DNA of 64,000 bases from Patescibacteria group bacterium (GCA_041649475.1 JBAZNA010000001.1:611308-675307), one strand, 5' to 3'; positions 7,304 to 47,582 are shown, counted from the stretch's first letter. Translations and numbers: made by a program. Notes: generated by a model not told the origin, from the sequence alone.

Positions 7304-10300
7304 TTACCTCATCATCTCCACAATCTTCGCCCGGGTCTTCGGTCCGAAGATGCCGTAGCCGTAAATGGAGGGGCTGGTGATTTTGTATTTAAGCTGGAAT
7401 CTCTGCACGGCTTTTTTGGTGGCAGAATCGAAATAGCCGGTGATTTTAGCTTCCGGATAGATGGCTTTGTTCTGGGCGAGGATGGTTTGGAGGACTTTGA
7501 CGTCTGTGCCGGATGAACCCAGTTGCAGGCTTCTGGTAAAAAGGTACTTGGGTGAGGAGGTGGGCAGTTGGTAAGTTTTGGTGAGATAGCCTCTGGTTAT
7601 GGTATCAAACCGGCCAATGGTGGTGGAAGCGATAGTGTTGGCGGTTTGATAGTTCTTTACTGCATTTTTGGTTAAAGGGCCATAGTAACCGGTTTTCAGC
7701 TTCTGGGGATAGATGCCGGGTATTTCAGAGAGGATGTTTTGCAATATTTTGACATCATAGCCGATGTTTCCGACATAGAGATTTCTGCCAAAGACGGTGG
7801 ATAAGATAAGCTTGGAGAGATCAGATAAAACCGAGGTAACTACAGTGATTGGGGTGGAGGTGGTGGTTGTGAGATTGGTGTTGCTGTTATTGTTGTTTTG
7901 CTGATTGGTTGAAGTGGAAAAAAGGTTAAACAAAGTGGAGGTGGAGAGGGAGGAAGTGGAGAGAACAGCCCCCGACCCCGACGAAATTGGAAACACCACG
8001 CTGGGACCGCCGCCGCCGTTTTTATGAATAGTGACCGGAATAGAGACAATGGCGATGCCTTCATAACCGGAGTCAGAGCTGGAAGCGGTGTTAGAGATAG
8101 TGACATTGTGATTGCCGGTAAAGGTACTGCCATTGGCGGCCATGGTGACGGTTTGAGCTGTATACCAGGTGGTGGAGGTGAAGGTTAAGGTGGAGGGATA
8201 AAAGACCATCTGGGTGCTGGTGGGAGCGGAGACAGTGATAATGACACTAGCAGAGGGCTGTGCGGCCAAAACAATGCTGAAGGTGTCGGTCATGCCGTCT
8301 TCCCAGACATTGGTGCTGGCTTTCTGGGAGACGGTGACGCCGGCGCCGGTGGTGTGGGTGTTGAGGAGGATGGATAGAGAACCGGTGAAATCTACCACAG
8401 CCAGATCGGGTTTAGAATCTTTATTAAGATCATCAGCAGTCACCCAATATACCTGACCGCCTATGGCATACGTTGTGGCTGAACCAAAGGTGCCGTTGCC
8501 TAAACCTAAAAGAACAGAAACAGAGCCATTCCCGCCGCTTCCTATATTGGCCACAGCTAAATCTTCATTACCGTCTTCATTAAAATCTTCCGAGGCTATA
8601 CCCGTCGGGGATGTGCCAACCGTATAATTTGTCGCCGAACCAAAGGTGCCATTGCCGTTGTTTAAAAGAATGGAAACGGTGGTACCAGGGTTTGAAGAAT
8701 CATAAAGAGTATTGTTATTGGCCACAGCTAAATCAAAGTAGCCGTCTCCATTAAAATCAGTTGTAGCCGTGTAAAATGGACCAGCACCAACAGTATAAGG
8801 TGTGGCCGCGCCAAAAGTGCCGTTGCCGTTGCCTAAAAGCACAGAGACGGTACTGCCCATACCACTAGGCGCAATCAAATCAATTTTACCATCAGAATTA
8901 AGATCAGCGGCTGAAACCGTAACAATTCCCATGCCAACCGTATAATTTGTCGCCGAACCAAAGGTGCCATTGCCGTTGTTTAATAAAACATAAACATCTG
9001 TACCTACGAAATCTCCTTCTATCAGATCGGATTTATTATCTCCATTAACATCAGCGGTAGTTACCCAAAGCCCCCCAGACGCAGCACCATAAGGAGTCAA
9101 ATCTCTGAATGTGCCGTCACCATTACCAAAAACAACAGAAACAGTCCCTGCCGTATAATTGGCAAAAGCCAAATCAAGGTGGCCGTCAGAATTAAAGTCA
9201 GAGACAGCCATACCACCGACATAAGTTTCCATGGGTACACTACCTAATGCGGAGAACGAGCCGTCACCATTGCCAAGGACAACAGTAAGGGTGCCTGTTA
9301 ATAAACTACCAACTACCAGATCTGTGTTTCCATCTTCATTAAAATCAGCGGCCACAGTATGAACAGGATATGAATCAACATCATAAGCAACCGGATCGGC
9401 AAATAAAGAACTTGAAAATAGTCCTCCCCTATTCCCAATTAAAATTGAATAACTGCTAGCAGAAGAATCTGCCACAACAATATCCGGCCAAAAATCTCCA
9501 CTGAAGTCAGTCGTTAATACAGTAAGGGGTTTGGTGCCAAGAGAATAGGCAGTGGAAGTGGCAAAGGTGCCAATACCGGTGCCAAAGAGAGTAGAGATGG
9601 TATTAGCGCTATAGTTGGAGGTGATAAGATCTCTTTTGCCGTCACCATTAAGGTCGTAATTGGTTATTGATCTGGGAGAGGCACCAACAGCGTAGGTGGT
9701 GTTTTGAAGGGTAAATGTTCCGGAACCTGAATTTAAAAGAATGGATACGGTATTAGAGGCGCTATTAGCAGTGACAATATCATATAAATTATCCGAATTG
9801 AAATCATAGGTAGTGATTGAGTAAGGAAAAGTTCCATCGCCAATATTGTAATTTACTGCCGCCGAAAAAGTGCCGGTAACAGAAGAATTTAAAAGAATAG
9901 AGACAGTACTGCTGCTAAAGTTGGCCACGGCCAAATCATTTTTATTGTCAGAATTAAAATCAGCGGAAATGATTGATATTGGCTTGCTGTTGACACTGTA
10001 GTTAGTGACTGATCCAAAAGTGCCGTTGCCAACTCCGAACAAGACAGAGACATTGTCTGAACCATAATTGGCGACGGCTAAATCGGTCTTGCCGTCAACA
10101 TTAAAGTCACCGGTAGTTACAGAATAGGGAGAAGAAGAAACAGTGTAATTAGTGGCTGTGCCAAAAGTGCCGTTACCGACACCGAGGAGAATGGAGATGT
10201 TATCACTGCCGCTATTGGCCACGGCCAAATCCAGATAACTATCACTATTAAAATATCCTAAAACAATGGCTTTGGGGCTGGTGCTGACATTGTAGTTAAC

Positions 10301-40763: not shown

Positions 40764-41285
40764 TTACTCGTTTTGGGCGAATTTAGAAAGTTTTTTTATG
40801 GCCCGATGGGCCGCTACTTTAACCGCCGTTTCCGTCATGCCTTTCATTTCCGCGATTTCTAAATAGCTATACCCAAAAATATAATGAAAGGTTACAATTT
40901 CACGGGTATTTTCGTCTAATTTGGCTAATAATTCATAAATTTCTTTTTTTATTGATTCTTTTTTAAAGGCGCGCGAGGCCAAATTCAGCCAAAAACTATC
41001 AACATTTTCGTCTGTTTCTTCCGGCAATGAGCCGACCGGCTTTTTATCCCGGTAGTAGTTAGCCATGTGATTTTTGCAAATTGTCATGATCCAGGCGGAT
41101 TGGCTGATTTTTGGGTCATAGGTCTCAAAATGCTCCAGGGCTTTCATAAAAATTTCCGATACCAAATCCTCGGCCAGTTCTTTATTGGCGCTAACGCGAA
41201 AAAAGACAAAGCGGTAAACTTTGTCTAAATGGGTTTGATAGAATTTTTCAAAATCGTGCTTTTTCACACTATCATTATAACTCAC
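40764..41285 (-). CDS. ECF-type RNA polymerase sigma-70 family factor
   Basis: Region 2 ([17 protein letters not shown]....AEDLVSE.F.K) and region 4 HTH ([28 protein letters not shown]). The start overlaps dnaJ by 11 nt. Confidence 0.8.
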
Positions 41286-42426
41286 TTTTCAAATCATCCA
41301 AAATCTTACGGGCGTTTTTGTTTAAATGTTTGGGCACGCGGATTTTTATTTTCACATACTGGTCTCCCCTGCCGTTGTCATTTAAATGCCCAACGCCTTT
41401 ATTTTTTAATCTGATCAATTGCCCGGATTCGGTGCCTTCCGGAACCACTAACCGAGTTTGCCCTTCAAGTGTTTCAATATTTATGGTGTCGCCGAGCACA
41501 GCTTGCGGAAAATTTATTTCGGCCTCGATGTAAATATCATACCCCTCGCGTTTGAATCCTTTTAGCGGCCTGACGTGAACCAAGACATACAAATCACCGG
41601 ACGAACCGCCGCGGCCTGCCGCTTCGCCGTGGCCGGAAAGGCGGATTGATTGACCATCATCAATGCCAGCCGGAATTTTTACTTTTATTTCCGAGTTGGA
41701 AGTGATCACGCCCGAGCCGTTGCAGTGTTTGCATTTTTTACTCGGCTTCTCGCCTTGGCCGTGACAATCCGGGCAAGTGGTGACGGTCTGCATTGTGCCC
41801 AAAAATGTCCGTTGGTTTTGCACAACTTGTCCTTGGCCGTGACAGGTCGGACAATTTTCCATCTTACTCCCCGGCTCGGCGCCAGTGCCACCGCAGACAT
41901 CACATTTATTTTGTTTTCGCAGTGATATTTGTTTTTCCACGCCAAAGGCCGCTTCTTTAAAATCTATCTGCGCGTCAATTTGAATATCGCGGCCGCGGCT
42001 TTGTCCACCGCGCCTGGAACCTCCTCTGGAACCGCCGCCGCCAAAACCGAACAAGTCCCCAAACATGTCGTTTAAATCCATCCCGCCAAAATCAAAAGAA
42101 AAATTTTGGAAACCACCCTGGCCACCGGCGCCGCCCTGACCGCGGGCTGCGCGCATGAAATCTTCCCATGTCATGCCCTGACCAAAACCGCCCTGCTGTT
42201 CAAAATCAGAGCCAAACTGATCATAGCGCTTGCGTTTTTCCGCGTCACCCAAGACCTGATATGCCTCATTCACTTCTTTGAATTTGGCCTCGTTCCCGCC
42301 CGGTCTGTCCGGGTGATGTTCCATGGCCGCCTTCTTAAAGGCCTTTTTTATATCATCTTGTGAAGCGTTTTTATCAACTCCGAGAATTTTGTAATAATCT
42401 TTTCCCATAACGAAGTTACTAGCCAA
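41275..42426 (-). CDS. dnaJ: Chaperone DnaJ
   Basis: J-domain with HPD, a G/F-rich region, four CxxCxGxG zinc-finger repeats and a C-terminal domain. Confidence 0.95.
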
Positions 42427-42428
42427 AG

Positions 42429-42749
42429 TTACCTTTTCAGCCCGATATTAATTTCTGATTCCACTTCTCTTCTTAATTCTTCATAAAATTCTAAATTTTC
42501 TTTAGCAAAATCAACATCTTTCCAGTTGGGGTTATCTTCCGGCGGAATCCATTTAGTATTTTCGGCCATCTCTTCTTTAAGACCATCCTTTAAATCTTTC
42601 ATCAAATCCGAATTTTTTCTAACCGCGGCTATTGTGCCCCCTCTATATTGGGGTGTAGCAATTGCGCATCTTCCACAAAGCCCATGAGAAATTGGCTCCC
42701 CTGATGTACCAGCTTTTTCTCTTCCACAAACCATGCAAATGGATTTCAT
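42429..42749 (-). CDS. Small zinc-ribbon protein (CxxC-x15-CxxC) inserted between dnaK and dnaJ, hypothetical
   Basis: 106 aa with N-terminal CMVCG...CGRC and an acidic C-terminal helical region. Confidence 0.45.
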
Positions 42750-42752
42750 ATA

Positions 42753-44666
42753 TTATTTTTTATCATCAACAACCTCGCCCTCAATCGGGCCTTCTTCTTT
42801 CTTGGGACCTTGATCACCGGGGTTTGGGCCGGCCTGCGCCCCACTTTGTCCGGCCTGCCCCTGCTGGTACATCTTGGCGCCAACAACCTGCGCGGCTTTG
42901 GATAATTCTTCAGCCGCCTTTTTCATGGCCTCAACATCATCTTTATCTTTAACTTCCTTCATCTTGACCAGCGCCTCACTCACCGCTTTTTTCTCGTCAT
43001 CGGTAACCGCGATTTTCTTTTCCTCAATTTCTTTCATCATTTTTTCGGTTGTATAAACCATGGTGTCGGCCAAATTTCTGGTTTCAATCAGTTCCTGCTT
43101 TTTCTTATCTTCGGCCGCGTGCGCTTCCGCGTCTTTTCTCATGCGTTCAACTTCGTCTTTTGACAAGCCCGAAGATGACTCAATCCTGATTGATTGTTCT
43201 TTGTTGGTGGCCTTGTCTTTGGCTTTGACGTTCAAAATGCCATTAGCATCAATATCAAAACTCACTTCCACCTGCGGCACACCGCGCGGAGCCGGCGGGA
43301 TTCCGTCCAGGATAAACTTGCCAAGAGTTTTATTATCACCTGCCATCGGACGCTCTCCCTGCAAAACATGAATTTCCACTGCCGGCTGATTATCGGCCGC
43401 CGTAGAAAAGACCTGTGATTTGGAAGTCGGGATGGTGGTATTTCTTTCAATGAGTTTAGTCATCACACTGCCAAAGGTTTCAATGCCGAGAGATAATGGC
43501 GTGACATCTAAAAGCAAAACATCTTTGACATCGCCTTTTAACACCCCACCCTGCACAGCCGCGCCAACCGCCACCACCTCATCCGGGTTCACACTGATAT
43601 TTGGCTTTTTGCCAAAAAACTTTTCCACAGTCGCGAGAACCAGGGGCATACGGGTCATACCGCCAACCATCACCACTTCATGTAAATCATTCGGAGTCAG
43701 CTTGGCATCGTCAAGCGCTTTGCGCACCGGCCCTAAAGTTTTCTCCACCAATTCCCCGACTAATTCTTCCAATTTTGATCGGGTCAGTTTCATCACCATG
43801 TGCTTTGGACCGCTTGAGTCAGAAGTAATAAACGGCTGATTGATTTCCGATTCCTGGGCCGTTGAAAGTTCAATCTTGGCTTTTTCGGCCGCTTCTCTTA
43901 TGCGTTGAAGTGCCAATGGATCTTTACTCAAATCAATCCCCTGGTCCTTTTTGAATTCATCCAAAATCCATTGAATAATCACCTGGTCAAAATCATCGCC
44001 GCCCAGATGAGTATCGCCGTTTGTTGAGAGCACCTGAACATTATCCGGCGCCACTTCCAAAATGGAAATATCAAAAGTTCCGCCGCCCAAATCATAGACC
44101 GCAATTTTTTGTTCGGTTTTTTTATCAAAACCATAAGCAAGCGCGGCCGCGGTCGGCTCGTTGATAATTCGCAGAACCTCCAAACCGGCAATTGCTCCGG
44201 CATCTTTGGTGGCCTGACGTTGTGAATCATCAAAATATGCCGGCACGGTAATTACCGCTTCAGTGATTTTTTCTCCCAAGCGTTCTTCGGCGTCAGCTTT
44301 CATCTTTCCCAAAATCATGGCCGAAATTTCCTGCGGGGAATATTCTTTGCCTTGCATCGCAACCTTCACGCCGCCGCCGGCATTAACAATTTTATACGGC
44401 ATGAGTTTAAGGTCGCGCTGGACTTCGGCGTCTTCCCATCTGCGGCCAATCAAACGCTTGATTGAATACAGCGTGTTTTCCGGATTGGTGACGGCCTGGC
44501 GTTTGGCCAGTTGGCCAACCAGCCGCTCGCCATTTTTGGAAATGGCCACAACCGACGGCGTGGTGCGCGCGCCTTCTTTATTTTCCAAAACCTTTGGCTG
44601 GCCGCCTTCTATAATGGCCATGCATGAATTAGTTGTACCGAGATCTATTCCGAGAACTTTGGACAT
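42753..44666 (-). CDS. dnaK: Chaperone DnaK (Hsp70)
   Basis: Full-length Hsp70 with motifs [18 protein letters not shown] and the EEVD-less bacterial C-terminus. Confidence 0.97.
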
Positions 44667-44701: not shown

Positions 44702-45019
44702 TTATGATTTTTCGGCTTTTGGCGCGGTAATTTTCAAAACTCCATCCTGAAATTCGGCGCTGACCTTATCTTCCAACACTGCTGTCGGCAAAGCCACTTC
44801 CCGGTAAAACGCACCGCTTCTAATTTCTTTGCGGTAATAATTTTTTTCATCAACCTCATGTTCGTTTTTTGATCCGCCTTTAATCACCAACACGCCTTTT
44901 TCTACACTTATACTAACATCTTCCGGCTTGATTCCGGCCAAAGGCAATTTCACCACTACATCCTTGTCGGTTTCATACATATCCATTGCCGGCACAAATG
45001 CCCAAGGAATGATATTCAT
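44702..45019 (-). CDS. Hsp20/alpha-crystallin family small heat-shock protein
   Basis: 105-aa alpha-crystallin domain with the A.F.DGVL.I..PK motif. Confidence 0.85.
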   Translation of the reverse strand: MNIIPWAFVPAMDMYETDKDVVVKLPLAGIKPEDVSISVEKGVLVIKGGSKNEHEVDEKNYYRKEIRSGAFYREVALPTAVLEDKVSAEFQDGVLKITAPKAEKS

Positions 45020-45046: not shown

Positions 45047-45924
45047 TTATTTAGCAATTATTACTCTGGCGGGCCTAACTACCCTATCTCCCATTTTATA
45101 ACCGCCAGAAACCTCTTTCAAAATCGTGTCTGCGTCAACCTCTTCATTTTCTTCCTCGCCAACCGCTTCGTGATATTTCGGATCAAACTTTTCGCCCACA
45201 GTTTTTATTTCCTCCAAATTATGCGCTTTCAAAATATCTCCAAACTGCTTCATTATATGTCCAACTCCTTCTGACCATTGTTTCCAGCCATTTTCTTCAT
45301 TCATCTGCTCCCGGTGCGCAAACGCCTTTTTAAAATTTTCATAAACCGGTATGAATTCTTCCAAAATTTGCAGTTCGCTCATTTTCACCCACTCACCGCG
45401 TCTGGCCGCAATTTCATTCTGTAAATTTTTGTAATCGGCCAAAGCCCTCTGCCAACCCTTTTTATATTCTTCAGTTTCCAGCATTTTTTTATACATTTTT
45501 ACATTTTCTTTAATCGTCTCATGTATATCTTTCTTTTCCAGAATTTCATCCGGTGAAAGCCAAACTACTTCTGTCCCTTCCTCACCATCTAATTTAATTT
45601 CATTTTTATTTGATACTAGATCAACCAAATAATTTAAGGCAATAAAATGATCCTTACCATCTTTATAATCTTTATCATGAACAAGATCAAAAGCATTTAA
45701 CAGACGTGGGTTTTCCACAACTGCGCCGGTTTCTTCTTCAACTTCGCGGAGTAGTGCATCCTGAACTTTCTCTCCCCACTCCACATGTCCGCCTGGGATT
45801 GTTAATTTATTCTGCCATTTTGGGCTTTTCATTAAGAAAAATTTTCCATCCTGGCTAAGTATCATTGCCCCGGCCGATACCCATGGATATTTCTTTTCTT
45901 CTTTTTTATTTTGGTCATCTGACA
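45047..45924 (-). CDS. grpE: Nudix hydrolase-GrpE fusion protein (N-terminal Nudix domain, C-terminal GrpE nucleotide-exchange-factor domain)
   Basis: Nudix box GGHVEWGEKVQDALLREVEEETGA. C-terminal GrpE motifs: coiled coil, FDPKYHEAV, GYKMGDRVVRPARV. Occupies the grpE slot of the hrcA-grpE-dnaK-dnaJ operon. The true start is probably the ATG near 45924; the GTG at 45964 would sit inside repeat element C. Confidence 0.75.
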
Positions 45925-45935
45925 TATATTGTATA

Positions 45936-46002
45936 GGTAGATATTTATTAAGCATTTTGAGCACTAGCGATAGCTTGGCGAAAAATGCTTAATAAATATC
46001 TA
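45936..46002. repeat. Palindromic intergenic repeat element, copy C (core GAGCACTAGCGATAGCTTGGCG; divergent arms)
   Basis: Perfect 22-bp arms GTAGATATTTATTAAGCATTTT and AAAATGCTTAATAAATATCTAC flank the conserved core. Lies between hrcA and the Nudix-GrpE gene. Confidence 0.8.
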
Positions 46003-46016
46003 CATGTGAAATAATG

Positions 46017-46703
46017 TTAAATAATCTCTAAAACTTTTTTAAGTAAGACAAAATTATGCTTGTAATCCATCCGCTTCGGTCCCAGCAAGGCAATCAAACT
46101 TTTTCCGTTGCCGCCAAAACGCGCGGACAAAACGCTTAAAATCGGGCCGAACGGATGCTCCTTGCCGATAAAATATTTCGGCTCTTCGTCAACTTTATCA
46201 AAAAAATCTTCCAGACATTCTTCGCAGTGATCAAAAATGCTAGAAATATCCGCCACTAAATTCAATTCTTTAAATTCGGGCTTATTAAATAAATTTGACA
46301 GACCGGTATAATATATTTTTTCCAAAGAAAAGGCCAGAATAACGGTTTCATTTGAAAGTTCAACCAATGACTTAGCCAGATTTTTTCTGGAGATTTCGTA
46401 ATCAGAATCGCTTTTGGCCGCATTGGAAATAAAACTGGCATCGCGTTTTGAGATTCTCAAATTATCCGCTTTTAAATTATCAATATAATGATGATAGCCC
46501 TTTTCGGTTGGCACGCGGCCGGCCGAGGTGTGAGGATGGGTTAAAAATCCTTCTTCTTCAAGCGCGCGCAGTTCATTGCGCACCGTAGCTTCGCTTAATT
46601 TTAAACCGCCGGCGGAAATCAAAAAACGTGAGCCGATTGGCTCGGCATTAGCAATATAGTTTTCCATGACGAGGTTAAAAAGTTTTTCTTTGCGAGTATC
46701 CAT
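46017..46703 (-). CDS. hrcA: Heat-inducible transcription repressor HrcA (short form; true start ATG at about 46703)
   Basis: N-terminal winged-HTH region (SRFLISAGGLKLSEATVRNEL..LE..GFL..PHTSAGRVPT) and a CIRCE operator 17 nt upstream. The ORF track extends it to 46757. Confidence 0.85.
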   Translation of the reverse strand: MDTRKEKLFNLVMENYIANAEPIGSRFLISAGGLKLSEATVRNELRALEEEGFLTHPHTSAGRVPTEKGYHHYIDNLKADNLRISKRDASFISNAAKSDSDYEISRKNLAKSLVELSNETVILAFSLEKIYYTGLSNLFNKPEFKELNLVADISSIFDHCEECLEDFFDKVDEEPKYFIGKEHPFGPILSVLSARFGGNGKSLIALLGPKRMDYKHNFVLLKKVLEII

Positions 46704-46719
46704 AATATTGATACGGATT

Positions 46720-46746
46720 TTATCACTCAAAGCTTCCGAGTGATAA
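46720..46746. promoter_or_regulatory. CIRCE operator (TTATCACTC-N9-GAGTGATAA), HrcA binding site
   Basis: Perfect 9-bp inverted repeat with a 9-bp spacer. Each half differs by one position from the consensus TTAGCACTC-N9-GAGTGCTAA. It overlaps the -10 element of the upstream promoter, as in classical dnaK/groE promoters. Confidence 0.85.
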
Positions 46747-46773
46747 TATACCACCAAGCAAAAAAGCCGTCAA
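46745..46773 (-). promoter_or_regulatory. Sigma-A type promoter of the hrcA-grpE-dnaK-dnaJ operon (TTGACG-17 nt-TATATT)
   Basis: Read on the minus strand: -35 TTGACG, a 17-nt spacer, and -10 TATATT running directly into the CIRCE left half. Confidence 0.7.
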
Positions 46774-46800: not shown

Positions 46801-46857
46801 AAAAAAAGTCCCAACGAAACTCTGTCGGGACCGGACTGGGCGCCTCTATGAGCGCCC
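46801..46857 (-). terminator. Tandem hairpin rho-independent terminator downstream of the high-GC gene
   Basis: Hairpin GGGCGC-N8-GCGCCC sits right after the stop codon. It is followed by GTCCCGAC-N8-GTTGGGAC and a T7 run on the minus strand. Confidence 0.6.
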
Positions 46858-47538
46858 TTAGTTGTGCGGGGTACGCCGTCGGCGGCTGGCCGGGACGGAG
46901 ATCTCCAGCACCAGGGTGTTGGCGTTGATCTCCACGATCATACGCTTCTCCAGCTCATGCTGGCGGCGCTCCTCCTCCGGGAGCGATGCCGTGTAGAGCT
47001 CCTCTGCTGTCTTCTCATCCAAGGGGAGACCGGCCTGCTTCATCTCCGCGAACAGAACGGCTGCCTCCATGACCGTAACCGTGTTCTTGCCGGCCGCACC
47101 ACGACAGTAGCCGAAGCCGGCTTCCAAACTGTGGACCGGGTTGCTGGCCCGCTCACCGTTCTGGGTCATGACGTTGCCGTGCGGGTACTTGAACGGGCAG
47201 TTGGAACTGGAACAGGTCTGAAACTTGAACCGGGGCGTGATACCCTCCGTCGGAGGCGGTGCACAGCCCGCCATTCGCTCACAGACAGCGGCGAAGTCGG
47301 GCAGGAGTCCGGCGTCCCTCATCACGGCCTCCACCGCCGGCGCCTCATCGCTGGTGATCATTCCGCTCTTGATGGCCTTGTACAGAAACGCCTTGCCATC
47401 GGCCAGACAGATGACTGGATGGGGTTCAAGATCCTCATCCGTCACGAAACAACCGTAGGCAATACCGAGGATTTCCAAGAACAAGTCCTGGATACCCTTA
47501 AGGAACATCATAGACATGGTCGCCTCCCATTTCTCCAA
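46858..47538 (-). CDS. Hypothetical Cys-rich protein encoded in an abrupt high-GC (about 60%) segment; probable horizontally acquired gene
   Basis: 226-aa ORF with a diverse amino-acid composition and a strong SD (GGAGG) 6 nt upstream of the ATG. The antisense frame is also open, but its product is R/G/L-rich, typical of a high-GC antisense artefact. No family was recognised. Confidence 0.55.
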   Translation of the reverse strand: MEKWEATMSMMFLKGIQDLFLEILGIAYGCFVTDEDLEPHPVICLADGKAFLYKAIKSGMITSDEAPAVEAVMRDAGLLPDFAAVCERMAGCAPPPTEGITPRFKFQTCSSSNCPFKYPHGNVMTQNGERASNPVHSLEAGFGYCRGAAGKNTVTVMEAAVLFAEMKQAGLPLDEKTAEELYTASLPEEERRQHELEKRMIVEINANTLVLEISVPASRRRRTPHN

Positions 47539-47582
47539 AGTTGATAAGCTAAAAATACAGCTTTATACCAAAAATGTCAACA

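Follow-up and report, generated by a model that had tools for sequence, protein, structure and literature searches.

The window, i.e. the whole 64,000-nucleotide stretch of Patescibacteria DNA that was analysed, carries on its minus strand a heat-shock operon in which the place of grpE is taken by a gene encoding a Nudix domain and a GrpE domain in one polypeptide. The genes and features of this locus are the following:

41275 to 42426, minus strand: dnaJ (Pfam DnaJ, DnaJ_CXXCXGXG and DnaJ_C)
42429 to 42749, minus strand: orf106, 106 aa with a CxxC...CxxC pattern, between dnaK and dnaJ; no Pfam or PHROG match
42753 to 44666, minus strand: dnaK (Pfam HSP70, E 1e-258)
44702 to 45019, minus strand: hsp20 (Pfam HSP20, E 6e-21)
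45047 to 45925, minus strand: nudix-grpE fusion coding sequence, 292 aa plus stop, ATG at 45925
45050 to 45481, minus strand: GrpE part of the fusion, residues 149-292 (stalk helix, helical bundle and C-terminal beta domain)
45482 to 45886, minus strand: Nudix domain of the fusion, residues 14-148 (alpha/beta/alpha sandwich; model pLDDT >95)
45722 to 45790, minus strand: Nudix box GHVEWGEKVQDALLREVEEETGA, of the form G-x5-E-x7-RE-U-x-EE-x-G-U
45927 to 46013, minus strand: 87-nt hairpin filling the spacer between hrcA and nudix-grpE, with a 22-bp perfect stem and a 3' arm that stops 1 nt before the ATG
46017 to 46703, minus strand: hrcA, short form of 228 aa, ATG at 46703 (Pfam HrcA; partial match to TIGR00331)
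46720 to 46746, no strand assigned: CIRCE-type operator TTATCACTC-N9-GAGTGATAA, 17 nt upstream of the hrcA start (0 of 100 shuffles match)
46745 to 46773, minus strand: putative sigma-70-like promoter TTGACG-17-TATATT with an extended TG, overlapping the CIRCE element, from a consensus scan

The order hrcA, fusion, hsp20, dnaK, dnaJ, which had been claimed in the original prediction, was recovered from the ORFs and their Pfam matches, with orf106 as an extra gene between dnaK and dnaJ. The fusion is the sole GrpE or Nudix match in the 64-kb window.

The ORF is continuous on the minus strand from 45047 to 45964 and would encode 305 aa if it were started at the upstream GTG (45964). Judged from the sequence, translation almost certainly begins with the ATG at 45925, which yields a protein of 292 aa starting with MSDDQNK, because the 292-aa form is 100% identical to the NCBI protein P0001 and because its N-terminus is common to that of L001, the closest of the related loci described below: the first residues MSDDQNK and the first 22 nt of the fusion gene are the same as in the L001 grpE. 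The gene end had previously been placed at 45924, which is off by 1 nt and out of frame. That Nudix and GrpE reside in one polypeptide was correctly recognised, both Pfam profiles being matched far above their cutoffs within the single ORF. The profile searches proposed as a check, run on the 305-aa form, matched both domains: NUDIX (PF00293) at residues 29-148 with 79 bits (cutoff 21) and GrpE (PF01025) at residues 142-305 with 129 bits (cutoff 25.8). The latter match spans profile positions 7-165 of 165, i.e. nearly the whole profile, and disposes of the concern that the GrpE part might lack profile support.

Relatives were surveyed for the same fusion, as had also been proposed. In a homologue set made of the best-scoring 120 clusters at 90% identity (sources NCBI, JGI, ENA and Logan), both Pfam domains are present in 118 clusters, at 38-57% identity, and 80 species-representative genome loci divide into 37 fused and 43 unfused ones. 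A frameshift, a missed stop or a misassembly joining two genes was ruled out, since the ORF is continuous, P0001 is identical and many independent assemblies are fused. The chance that an assembly or sequencing error has merged two adjacent genes is indeed negligible: neither a stop nor a frameshift lies inside the fusion ORF, the same architecture recurs in 118 independent clusters from JGI, ENA, Logan and NCBI, and 37 species-representative genomes hold both domains in one stop-to-stop ORF; our search for support for such an artefact returned none. In public records these proteins go by the names ‘nucleotide exchange factor GrpE’, ‘molecular chaperone GrpE’ or ‘nucleoside triphosphatase’, and records naming them GrpE or nucleoside triphosphatase alone miss the fusion, an annotation that is corrected here. 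Full-text searches of the searchable literature returned no description of a Nudix-GrpE protein. Thus, Nudix-GrpE is an uncharacterised protein that is already in the databases and widespread in one Patescibacteria branch, and the fusion has apparently never been studied before.

The operator upstream of hrcA differs from the CIRCE consensus TTAGCACTC-N9-GAGTGCTAA by two symmetric mismatches. In 69 related loci, fused and unfused, the CIRCE element occurs exactly once, just 5' of hrcA. Since the element precedes hrcA here as well as in relatives, the fusion gene is part of a classical HrcA-repressed heat-shock operon, with an operator at the operon promoter and the hrcA gene directly downstream. 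In the window as in each of the 80 related loci, (nudix-)grpE has hrcA on one side and hsp20/dnaK on the other, the order in these loci being hrcA, (nudix-)grpE, (hsp20), dnaK, ..., dnaJ. As listed, the hrcA ORF has a TTG start at 46757 and contains the CIRCE-like operator; hence hrcA probably starts at the ATG at 46703. With 228 aa (relatives about 230 aa), HrcA is unusually short, and of the usual models only the first third and the last part are matched by it. Homologues of orf106 are detectable at the same position in L023, L025 and L030, and an uncharacterised 144-aa ORF is found there in L001 and L002; from its sequence, orf106 may be an uncharacterised, operon-specific zinc-ribbon protein.

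Two further features flank hrcA. The hairpin in the hrcA/nudix-grpE spacer is AT-rich, with 32-nt arms that are 88% complementary (MFE -34.2 kcal/mol, z -7.8), and occurs once in the window. Its inverted repeat is not a CIRCE element, the real one being upstream of hrcA, and its candidacy as a conserved regulatory RNA was rejected: no Rfam family matches, and the hairpin is absent from L001, the spacer of which is 5 nt. Strong hairpins appear sporadically in other long hrcA-grpE spacers, in fused and unfused loci alike, so that the spacer hairpin has no link to the fusion. It may serve as an RNA thermometer or as a site for processing or stabilisation; alternatively, a palindromic element may have been inserted there. 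Directly upstream of the operon lies an island of about 700 bp (46850-47550) with 61-64% GC, compared with about 40% for the genome, holding a 226-aa minus-strand ORF (46858-47538) that has no Pfam, PHROG or PDB match. In L001, Band_7 and hrcA are only about 220 nt apart, so that this island looks like a foreign insertion.

The locus records are titled Magasanikbacteria, Falkowbacteria or unclassified Patescibacteria, and the fusion is distributed patchily over Magasanikbacteria- and Falkowbacteria-type Patescibacteria. Many MAG records (L005, L007, L008, L013, L014 and others), some of them SPIRE-type, are titled ‘uncultured Gammaproteobacteria bacterium’ although their operon and GrpE are of the same Patescibacteria type, which makes the taxonomy in these titles look wrong. 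In a neighbour-joining tree of the GrpE domain, the Falkowbacteria-type clade is wholly fused and the Magasanikbacteria-type clade is a mosaic. Fitch parsimony on this tree requires at least 14 changes between the fused and unfused states versus about 27 with shuffled labels, a number that is rough because the neighbour-joining tree is built on about 140 residues. Among the fusions, distances of the Nudix half and of the GrpE half co-vary (Mantel r 0.57, reached in 0 of 2000 permutations), which argues that the halves were inherited together and that the fusion is old, rather than the product of many independent fusion events.

The closest relative, L001, shows how the two forms relate. It has the same flanking genes (BacA, HD, lactamase_B, YidC and Band_7) and 79% identity in the GrpE half, but its syntenic GrpE is a protein of 171 aa without Nudix: it starts with MSDDQNK and has 23 acidic residues in place of residues 8-151 of the fusion. 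This comparison defines the Nudix domain as an in-frame cassette inside the GrpE N-terminal region. The seven nearest GrpE relatives of the window protein are all unfused, and among the fusions its nearest Nudix relatives (58% identity) differ from its nearest GrpE relatives. Two histories would fit: retention of the cassette in the window lineage with loss in its neighbours, or a regain by recombination. We also considered whether an HD/DUF4202 phosphohydrolase substitutes for the Nudix domain in unfused loci by non-orthologous displacement, and rejected this, as the gene is found only in L001 and L002 among the 80 loci; in L001 (6989-7543), as in L002, it is inserted between hsp20 and dnaK. 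When the genes inserted between grpE and dnaJ were clustered over the 80 loci, no family followed the fused or unfused state.

Several relatives depart from the common arrangement. In L072, an intact standalone Nudix gene (148 aa, 1062-1505) lies directly upstream of the nudix-grpE fusion (1520-2368), whose own box has decayed to RKIKDE instead of RExxEE, the sole degenerate box among the fusions found. Retention of the domain there despite the degenerate box is a hint that the fused Nudix may have a structural function rather than a catalytic one. L065, a Magasanikbacteria locus with an unfused GrpE, has a separate 153-aa Nudix gene (8650-9108, Pfam E 2e-11) between dnaK and dnaJ. At the other extreme, L039 (5776-6810) encodes a DUF1653-Nudix-GrpE triple fusion confirmed by Pfam, which L056 and L063 share by N-terminal motif only, and P0103 (403 aa) is a Nudix-GrpE with a C-terminal S1 RNA-binding domain.

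How specific is the partnership? Used by itself as the query of a word-index protein search, the Nudix half gave two matches only, and an exhaustive search of 1.8 billion representatives gave 4093 relatives, none better than E 1e-28. Most of these stand alone and have 135-155 aa; in others the fusion partner is MazG, HIT, RpiB, DUF3850/ASCH or a tandem Nudix. Judged by these matches, the Nudix half is one of a very broad pool of minimal Nudix proteins. One may ask whether a housekeeping Nudix gene that adjoined grpE was simply fused to it during genome reduction, the two halves keeping unrelated jobs and their linkage having no selective meaning. The promiscuity of the most similar Nudix domains would agree with such an accident, as would the repeated loss of the cassette and the L072 gene order hrcA, nudix, nudix-grpE. 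We nevertheless regard it as improbable, since the architecture is retained over Magasanikbacteria- and Falkowbacteria-type lineages down to 31-38% identity and the two halves co-evolve. Moreover, separate Nudix genes are associated with this same operon in L065 and L072, and the intact fusion has received additional domains, as in the DUF1653-Nudix-GrpE and Nudix-GrpE-S1 proteins, rather than being broken up.

The N-terminal part of the fusion belongs to the Nudix superfamily (PF00293) by profile match and by its alpha/beta/alpha fold. The complete Nudix box GX5EX7REUXEEXGU reported in the original prediction is present and reads GHVEWGEKVQDALLREVEEETGA, with Ala rather than I/L/V at its last position. 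Its core, G-x5-E-x7-RE-x2-EE, does not vary among the 118 fusion homologues and is found in 37 of the 38 Nudix ORFs of the genome loci. Across 67 aligned fusions, G45/G46, E52, R60, E61, E64, E65, H93 and E116 are invariant and W122 nearly so. Relative to the window protein, identity is 33-58% in the Nudix half and 64-71% in the GrpE half, i.e. the Nudix half evolves faster. The active site of the Nudix half is nevertheless clearly under purifying selection, and the domain is predicted to be enzymatically active. As to substrate, no curated NCBIfam equivalog of a characterised Nudix subfamily reaches its cutoff with the Nudix part (NudI 45 bits vs 95, MutT 35 vs 148, RppH 25 vs 118), structural neighbours are spread evenly over substrate classes, and solved Nudix structures have at most 28% identity to it. 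The downstream residues that we take to be subfamily markers are mixed, with Y/F at +19 and, in many members but not in the window protein, Pro at +16/+17.

The C-terminal part has the GrpE fold, with a long stalk helix, a helical bundle and a C-terminal beta domain, and the fusion matches the GrpE PDB chains 4ANI, 3A6M, 9BLT and 1DKG with E-values from 2e-15 to 2e-7. None of the NCBIfam GrpE equivalogs is matched above cutoff (best NF010738, 93 bits vs 137), which we ascribe to divergence and not to non-membership because the PRK models are lineage-specific. G220 is invariant in 69 of 69 aligned family members and presumably corresponds to E. coli G122, the grpE280 site, a glycine needed for DnaK binding. 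Directly before the stalk, 33 of the 69 aligned GrpEs, fused and unfused (L017, L021, L022, L033, L067, L071, L073 and L079 among them), have a basic-FF-CxxC motif, e.g. KKSFFGKxCKDCEK, which the window protein does not have; this motif could be a pseudo-substrate binding to DnaK or an intersubunit metal site.

The AF2 model of the window protein (mean pLDDT 88.8) starts with a 13-residue polar N-terminus, followed by a compact Nudix sandwich (14-135, pLDDT >95), a single helix (136-207) in which the last Nudix helix runs on as the GrpE stalk, a second helix (212-234) and the C-terminal beta domain. Ahead of the folded Nudix there are thus only 13 polar residues, MSDDQNKKEEKKY, and the hydrophobic tail motif of canonical GrpE (IIM in E. 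coli) is absent from this N-terminus, so that substrate release from DnaK may differ from that of canonical GrpE. The continuous helix implies that, in this minimal-linker protein, mechanical coupling between the halves would be possible. Across the family, the linker from Nudix to stalk varies by 0 to about 35 residues, the window protein having the shortest; in the model of a typical member, P0007 (pTM 0.50), residues 142-156 form a low-confidence coil (pLDDT <70), and the linker is predicted to be flexible there.

These features bear on the idea, put forward in the original prediction, that chaperone cycling is coupled to a nucleotide pool or an alarmone signal. As a ligand-gated exchange factor, the fusion would work as follows: the Nudix part would sense and clear Ap4A, ADP-ribose or a (p)ppGpp-like signal and thereby tune exchange or substrate release by GrpE, via the stalk or a contact with DnaK. 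If so, chaperone cycling would follow the alarmone or energy state of the cell. The helix 136-207, which links Nudix to stalk in the window protein, speaks for such a device, as does the gene's CIRCE/HrcA heat-shock regulation. In canonical GrpE, the N-terminal tail acts on the DnaK substrate-binding domain via its hydrophobic motif (PMC12915176, PMC10803776), and it is this regulatory tail whose place the Nudix domain takes. Ap4A binds DnaK in E. coli (PMC10148737). Retention of the fused domain in L072 despite its degenerate box speaks for a sensor too, but elsewhere in the family the box is invariant. In Nudix domains that act purely as sensors, e.g. NrtR, the catalytic box has usually decayed. 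The invariance of the catalytic residues can be read in favour of coupling to a nucleotide pool or alarmone; against tight coupling, neither profiles nor structural neighbours point to a substrate class. Gating through the stalk is also difficult to reconcile with a linker whose length is not conserved and which is predicted to be flexible in P0007, and with a cassette lost or gained at least about 14 times, sister lineages having a plain GrpE in an otherwise identical operon. We therefore consider ligand gating unlikely, though less so for the short-linker protein of the window.

The reading we prefer, and hold to be rather more probable than not, is that of a bifunctional, heat-shock-co-regulated GrpE in which the halves are largely independent and fusion provides co-regulation and proximity to DnaK. 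The fusion would be the operon's genuine GrpE, i.e. the ADP/ATP exchange factor of DnaK. A predicted, catalytically competent minimal Nudix pyrophosphohydrolase of about 135 aa would be built into its N-terminus, inserted between MSDDQNK and the start of the stalk helix (EEYKxGWQRALADY) in place of the disordered tail of canonical GrpE. The gene would be transcribed with hrcA, hsp20, dnaK and dnaJ from the CIRCE/HrcA-repressed heat-shock promoter, and on this shared transcript Nudix would be made 1:1 with GrpE and rise on heat shock. Dimerisation of GrpE via its stalk would hold two Nudix domains at the stalk tip, presumably near the substrate-binding domain and linker of DnaK. The GrpE part would exchange nucleotide as usual and the Nudix part would act autonomously, probably hydrolysing a stress-related nucleoside-diphosphate-X, either a dinucleoside polyphosphate (Ap4A) or a non-canonical or damaged (d)NTP. 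What the fusion would confer is thus co-regulation and nearness to DnaK, and not an obligatory allosteric switch. We counted in favour of such modularity and autonomy the plain GrpE of L001, the 37/43 split between fused and unfused loci and the variable linker, and in favour of the reading as a whole also the standalone Nudix genes in the same operon (L065, L072). Against this reading we counted the helix 136-207, the decayed box of L072 and the missing hydrophobic tail motif.

A more specific version is that the Nudix domain hydrolyses Ap4A/Np4N, or another heat-induced nucleotide, at DnaK itself, clearing an inhibitory dinucleotide or turning it into ATP and AMP during exchange, or else that its ligand state gates GrpE. 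Ap4A builds up during heat shock and can be crosslinked to DnaK, GroEL and ClpB; its asymmetric cleavage by Nudix enzymes yields ATP and AMP (PMC10148737). We give this proposal a low probability; were it true, alarmone turnover would for the first time be seen physically connected with the Hsp70 cycle.

The interest of the fusion does not depend on that outcome. If the two activities are coupled, the protein offers an experimental handle on what stress nucleotides such as Ap4A, which crosslinks to DnaK, do to chaperones. If they are uncoupled, close species with fused and unfused forms constitute a natural experiment on the dispensability of the GrpE tail and on the bundling of stress functions in genome-reduced Patescibacteria.

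Comparison with known systems places the fusion as follows. Firstly, its operon resembles that of the B. subtilis-type HrcA/CIRCE system, with a promoter-proximal CIRCE element and hrcA first, then grpE, dnaK and dnaJ, and differs from it in the half-sites TTATCACTC/GAGTGATAA, the short HrcA (228 aa), the inserted hsp20 and small CxxC ORF, and the large hairpin between hrcA and the fusion. Secondly, its Nudix part has at most 28% identity to minimal single-domain Nudix hydrolases (the M. mazei MutT-related protein 3GRN, B. pseudomallei 4DYW, the T. thermophilus Ap6A hydrolase Ndx1 1VC8 and E. coli NudI 3OGA) and, unlike these, has a C-terminal helix that runs into the GrpE stalk. Thirdly, Nudix domains are likewise joined to a functionally related partner in other fusions, i.e. 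the NadM-Nudix NMN adenylyltransferase/ADP-ribose pyrophosphatase, the NrtR Nudix-wHTH protein and the MazG-, HIT- and RpiB-Nudix proteins. Such fusions can be catalytic, as in NadM-Nudix, or regulatory, as in NrtR. In those cases the partner is an enzyme of nucleotide metabolism or a DNA-binding domain, whereas in Nudix-GrpE it is a protein-folding co-chaperone. Finally, the GrpE N-terminal region is currently seen as a coupler of nucleotide exchange to substrate release and temperature sensing, and this lineage has put a predicted nucleotide pyrophosphohydrolase in its place. With canonical bacterial GrpE (E. coli 1DKG, G. kaustophilus 4ANI, T. thermophilus 3A6M and the M. tuberculosis DnaK-GrpE cryo-EM structure) the fusion shares the full GrpE domain, the stalk helix, the helical bundle and the beta domain, as well as the conserved Gly (equivalent to E. 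coli G122) and the CIRCE-controlled hrcA-grpE-dnaK-dnaJ operon. But where canonical GrpE has a disordered, DnaK-binding N-terminal tail (PMC12915176, PMC10803776), the fusion has a folded Nudix domain with an intact catalytic motif.
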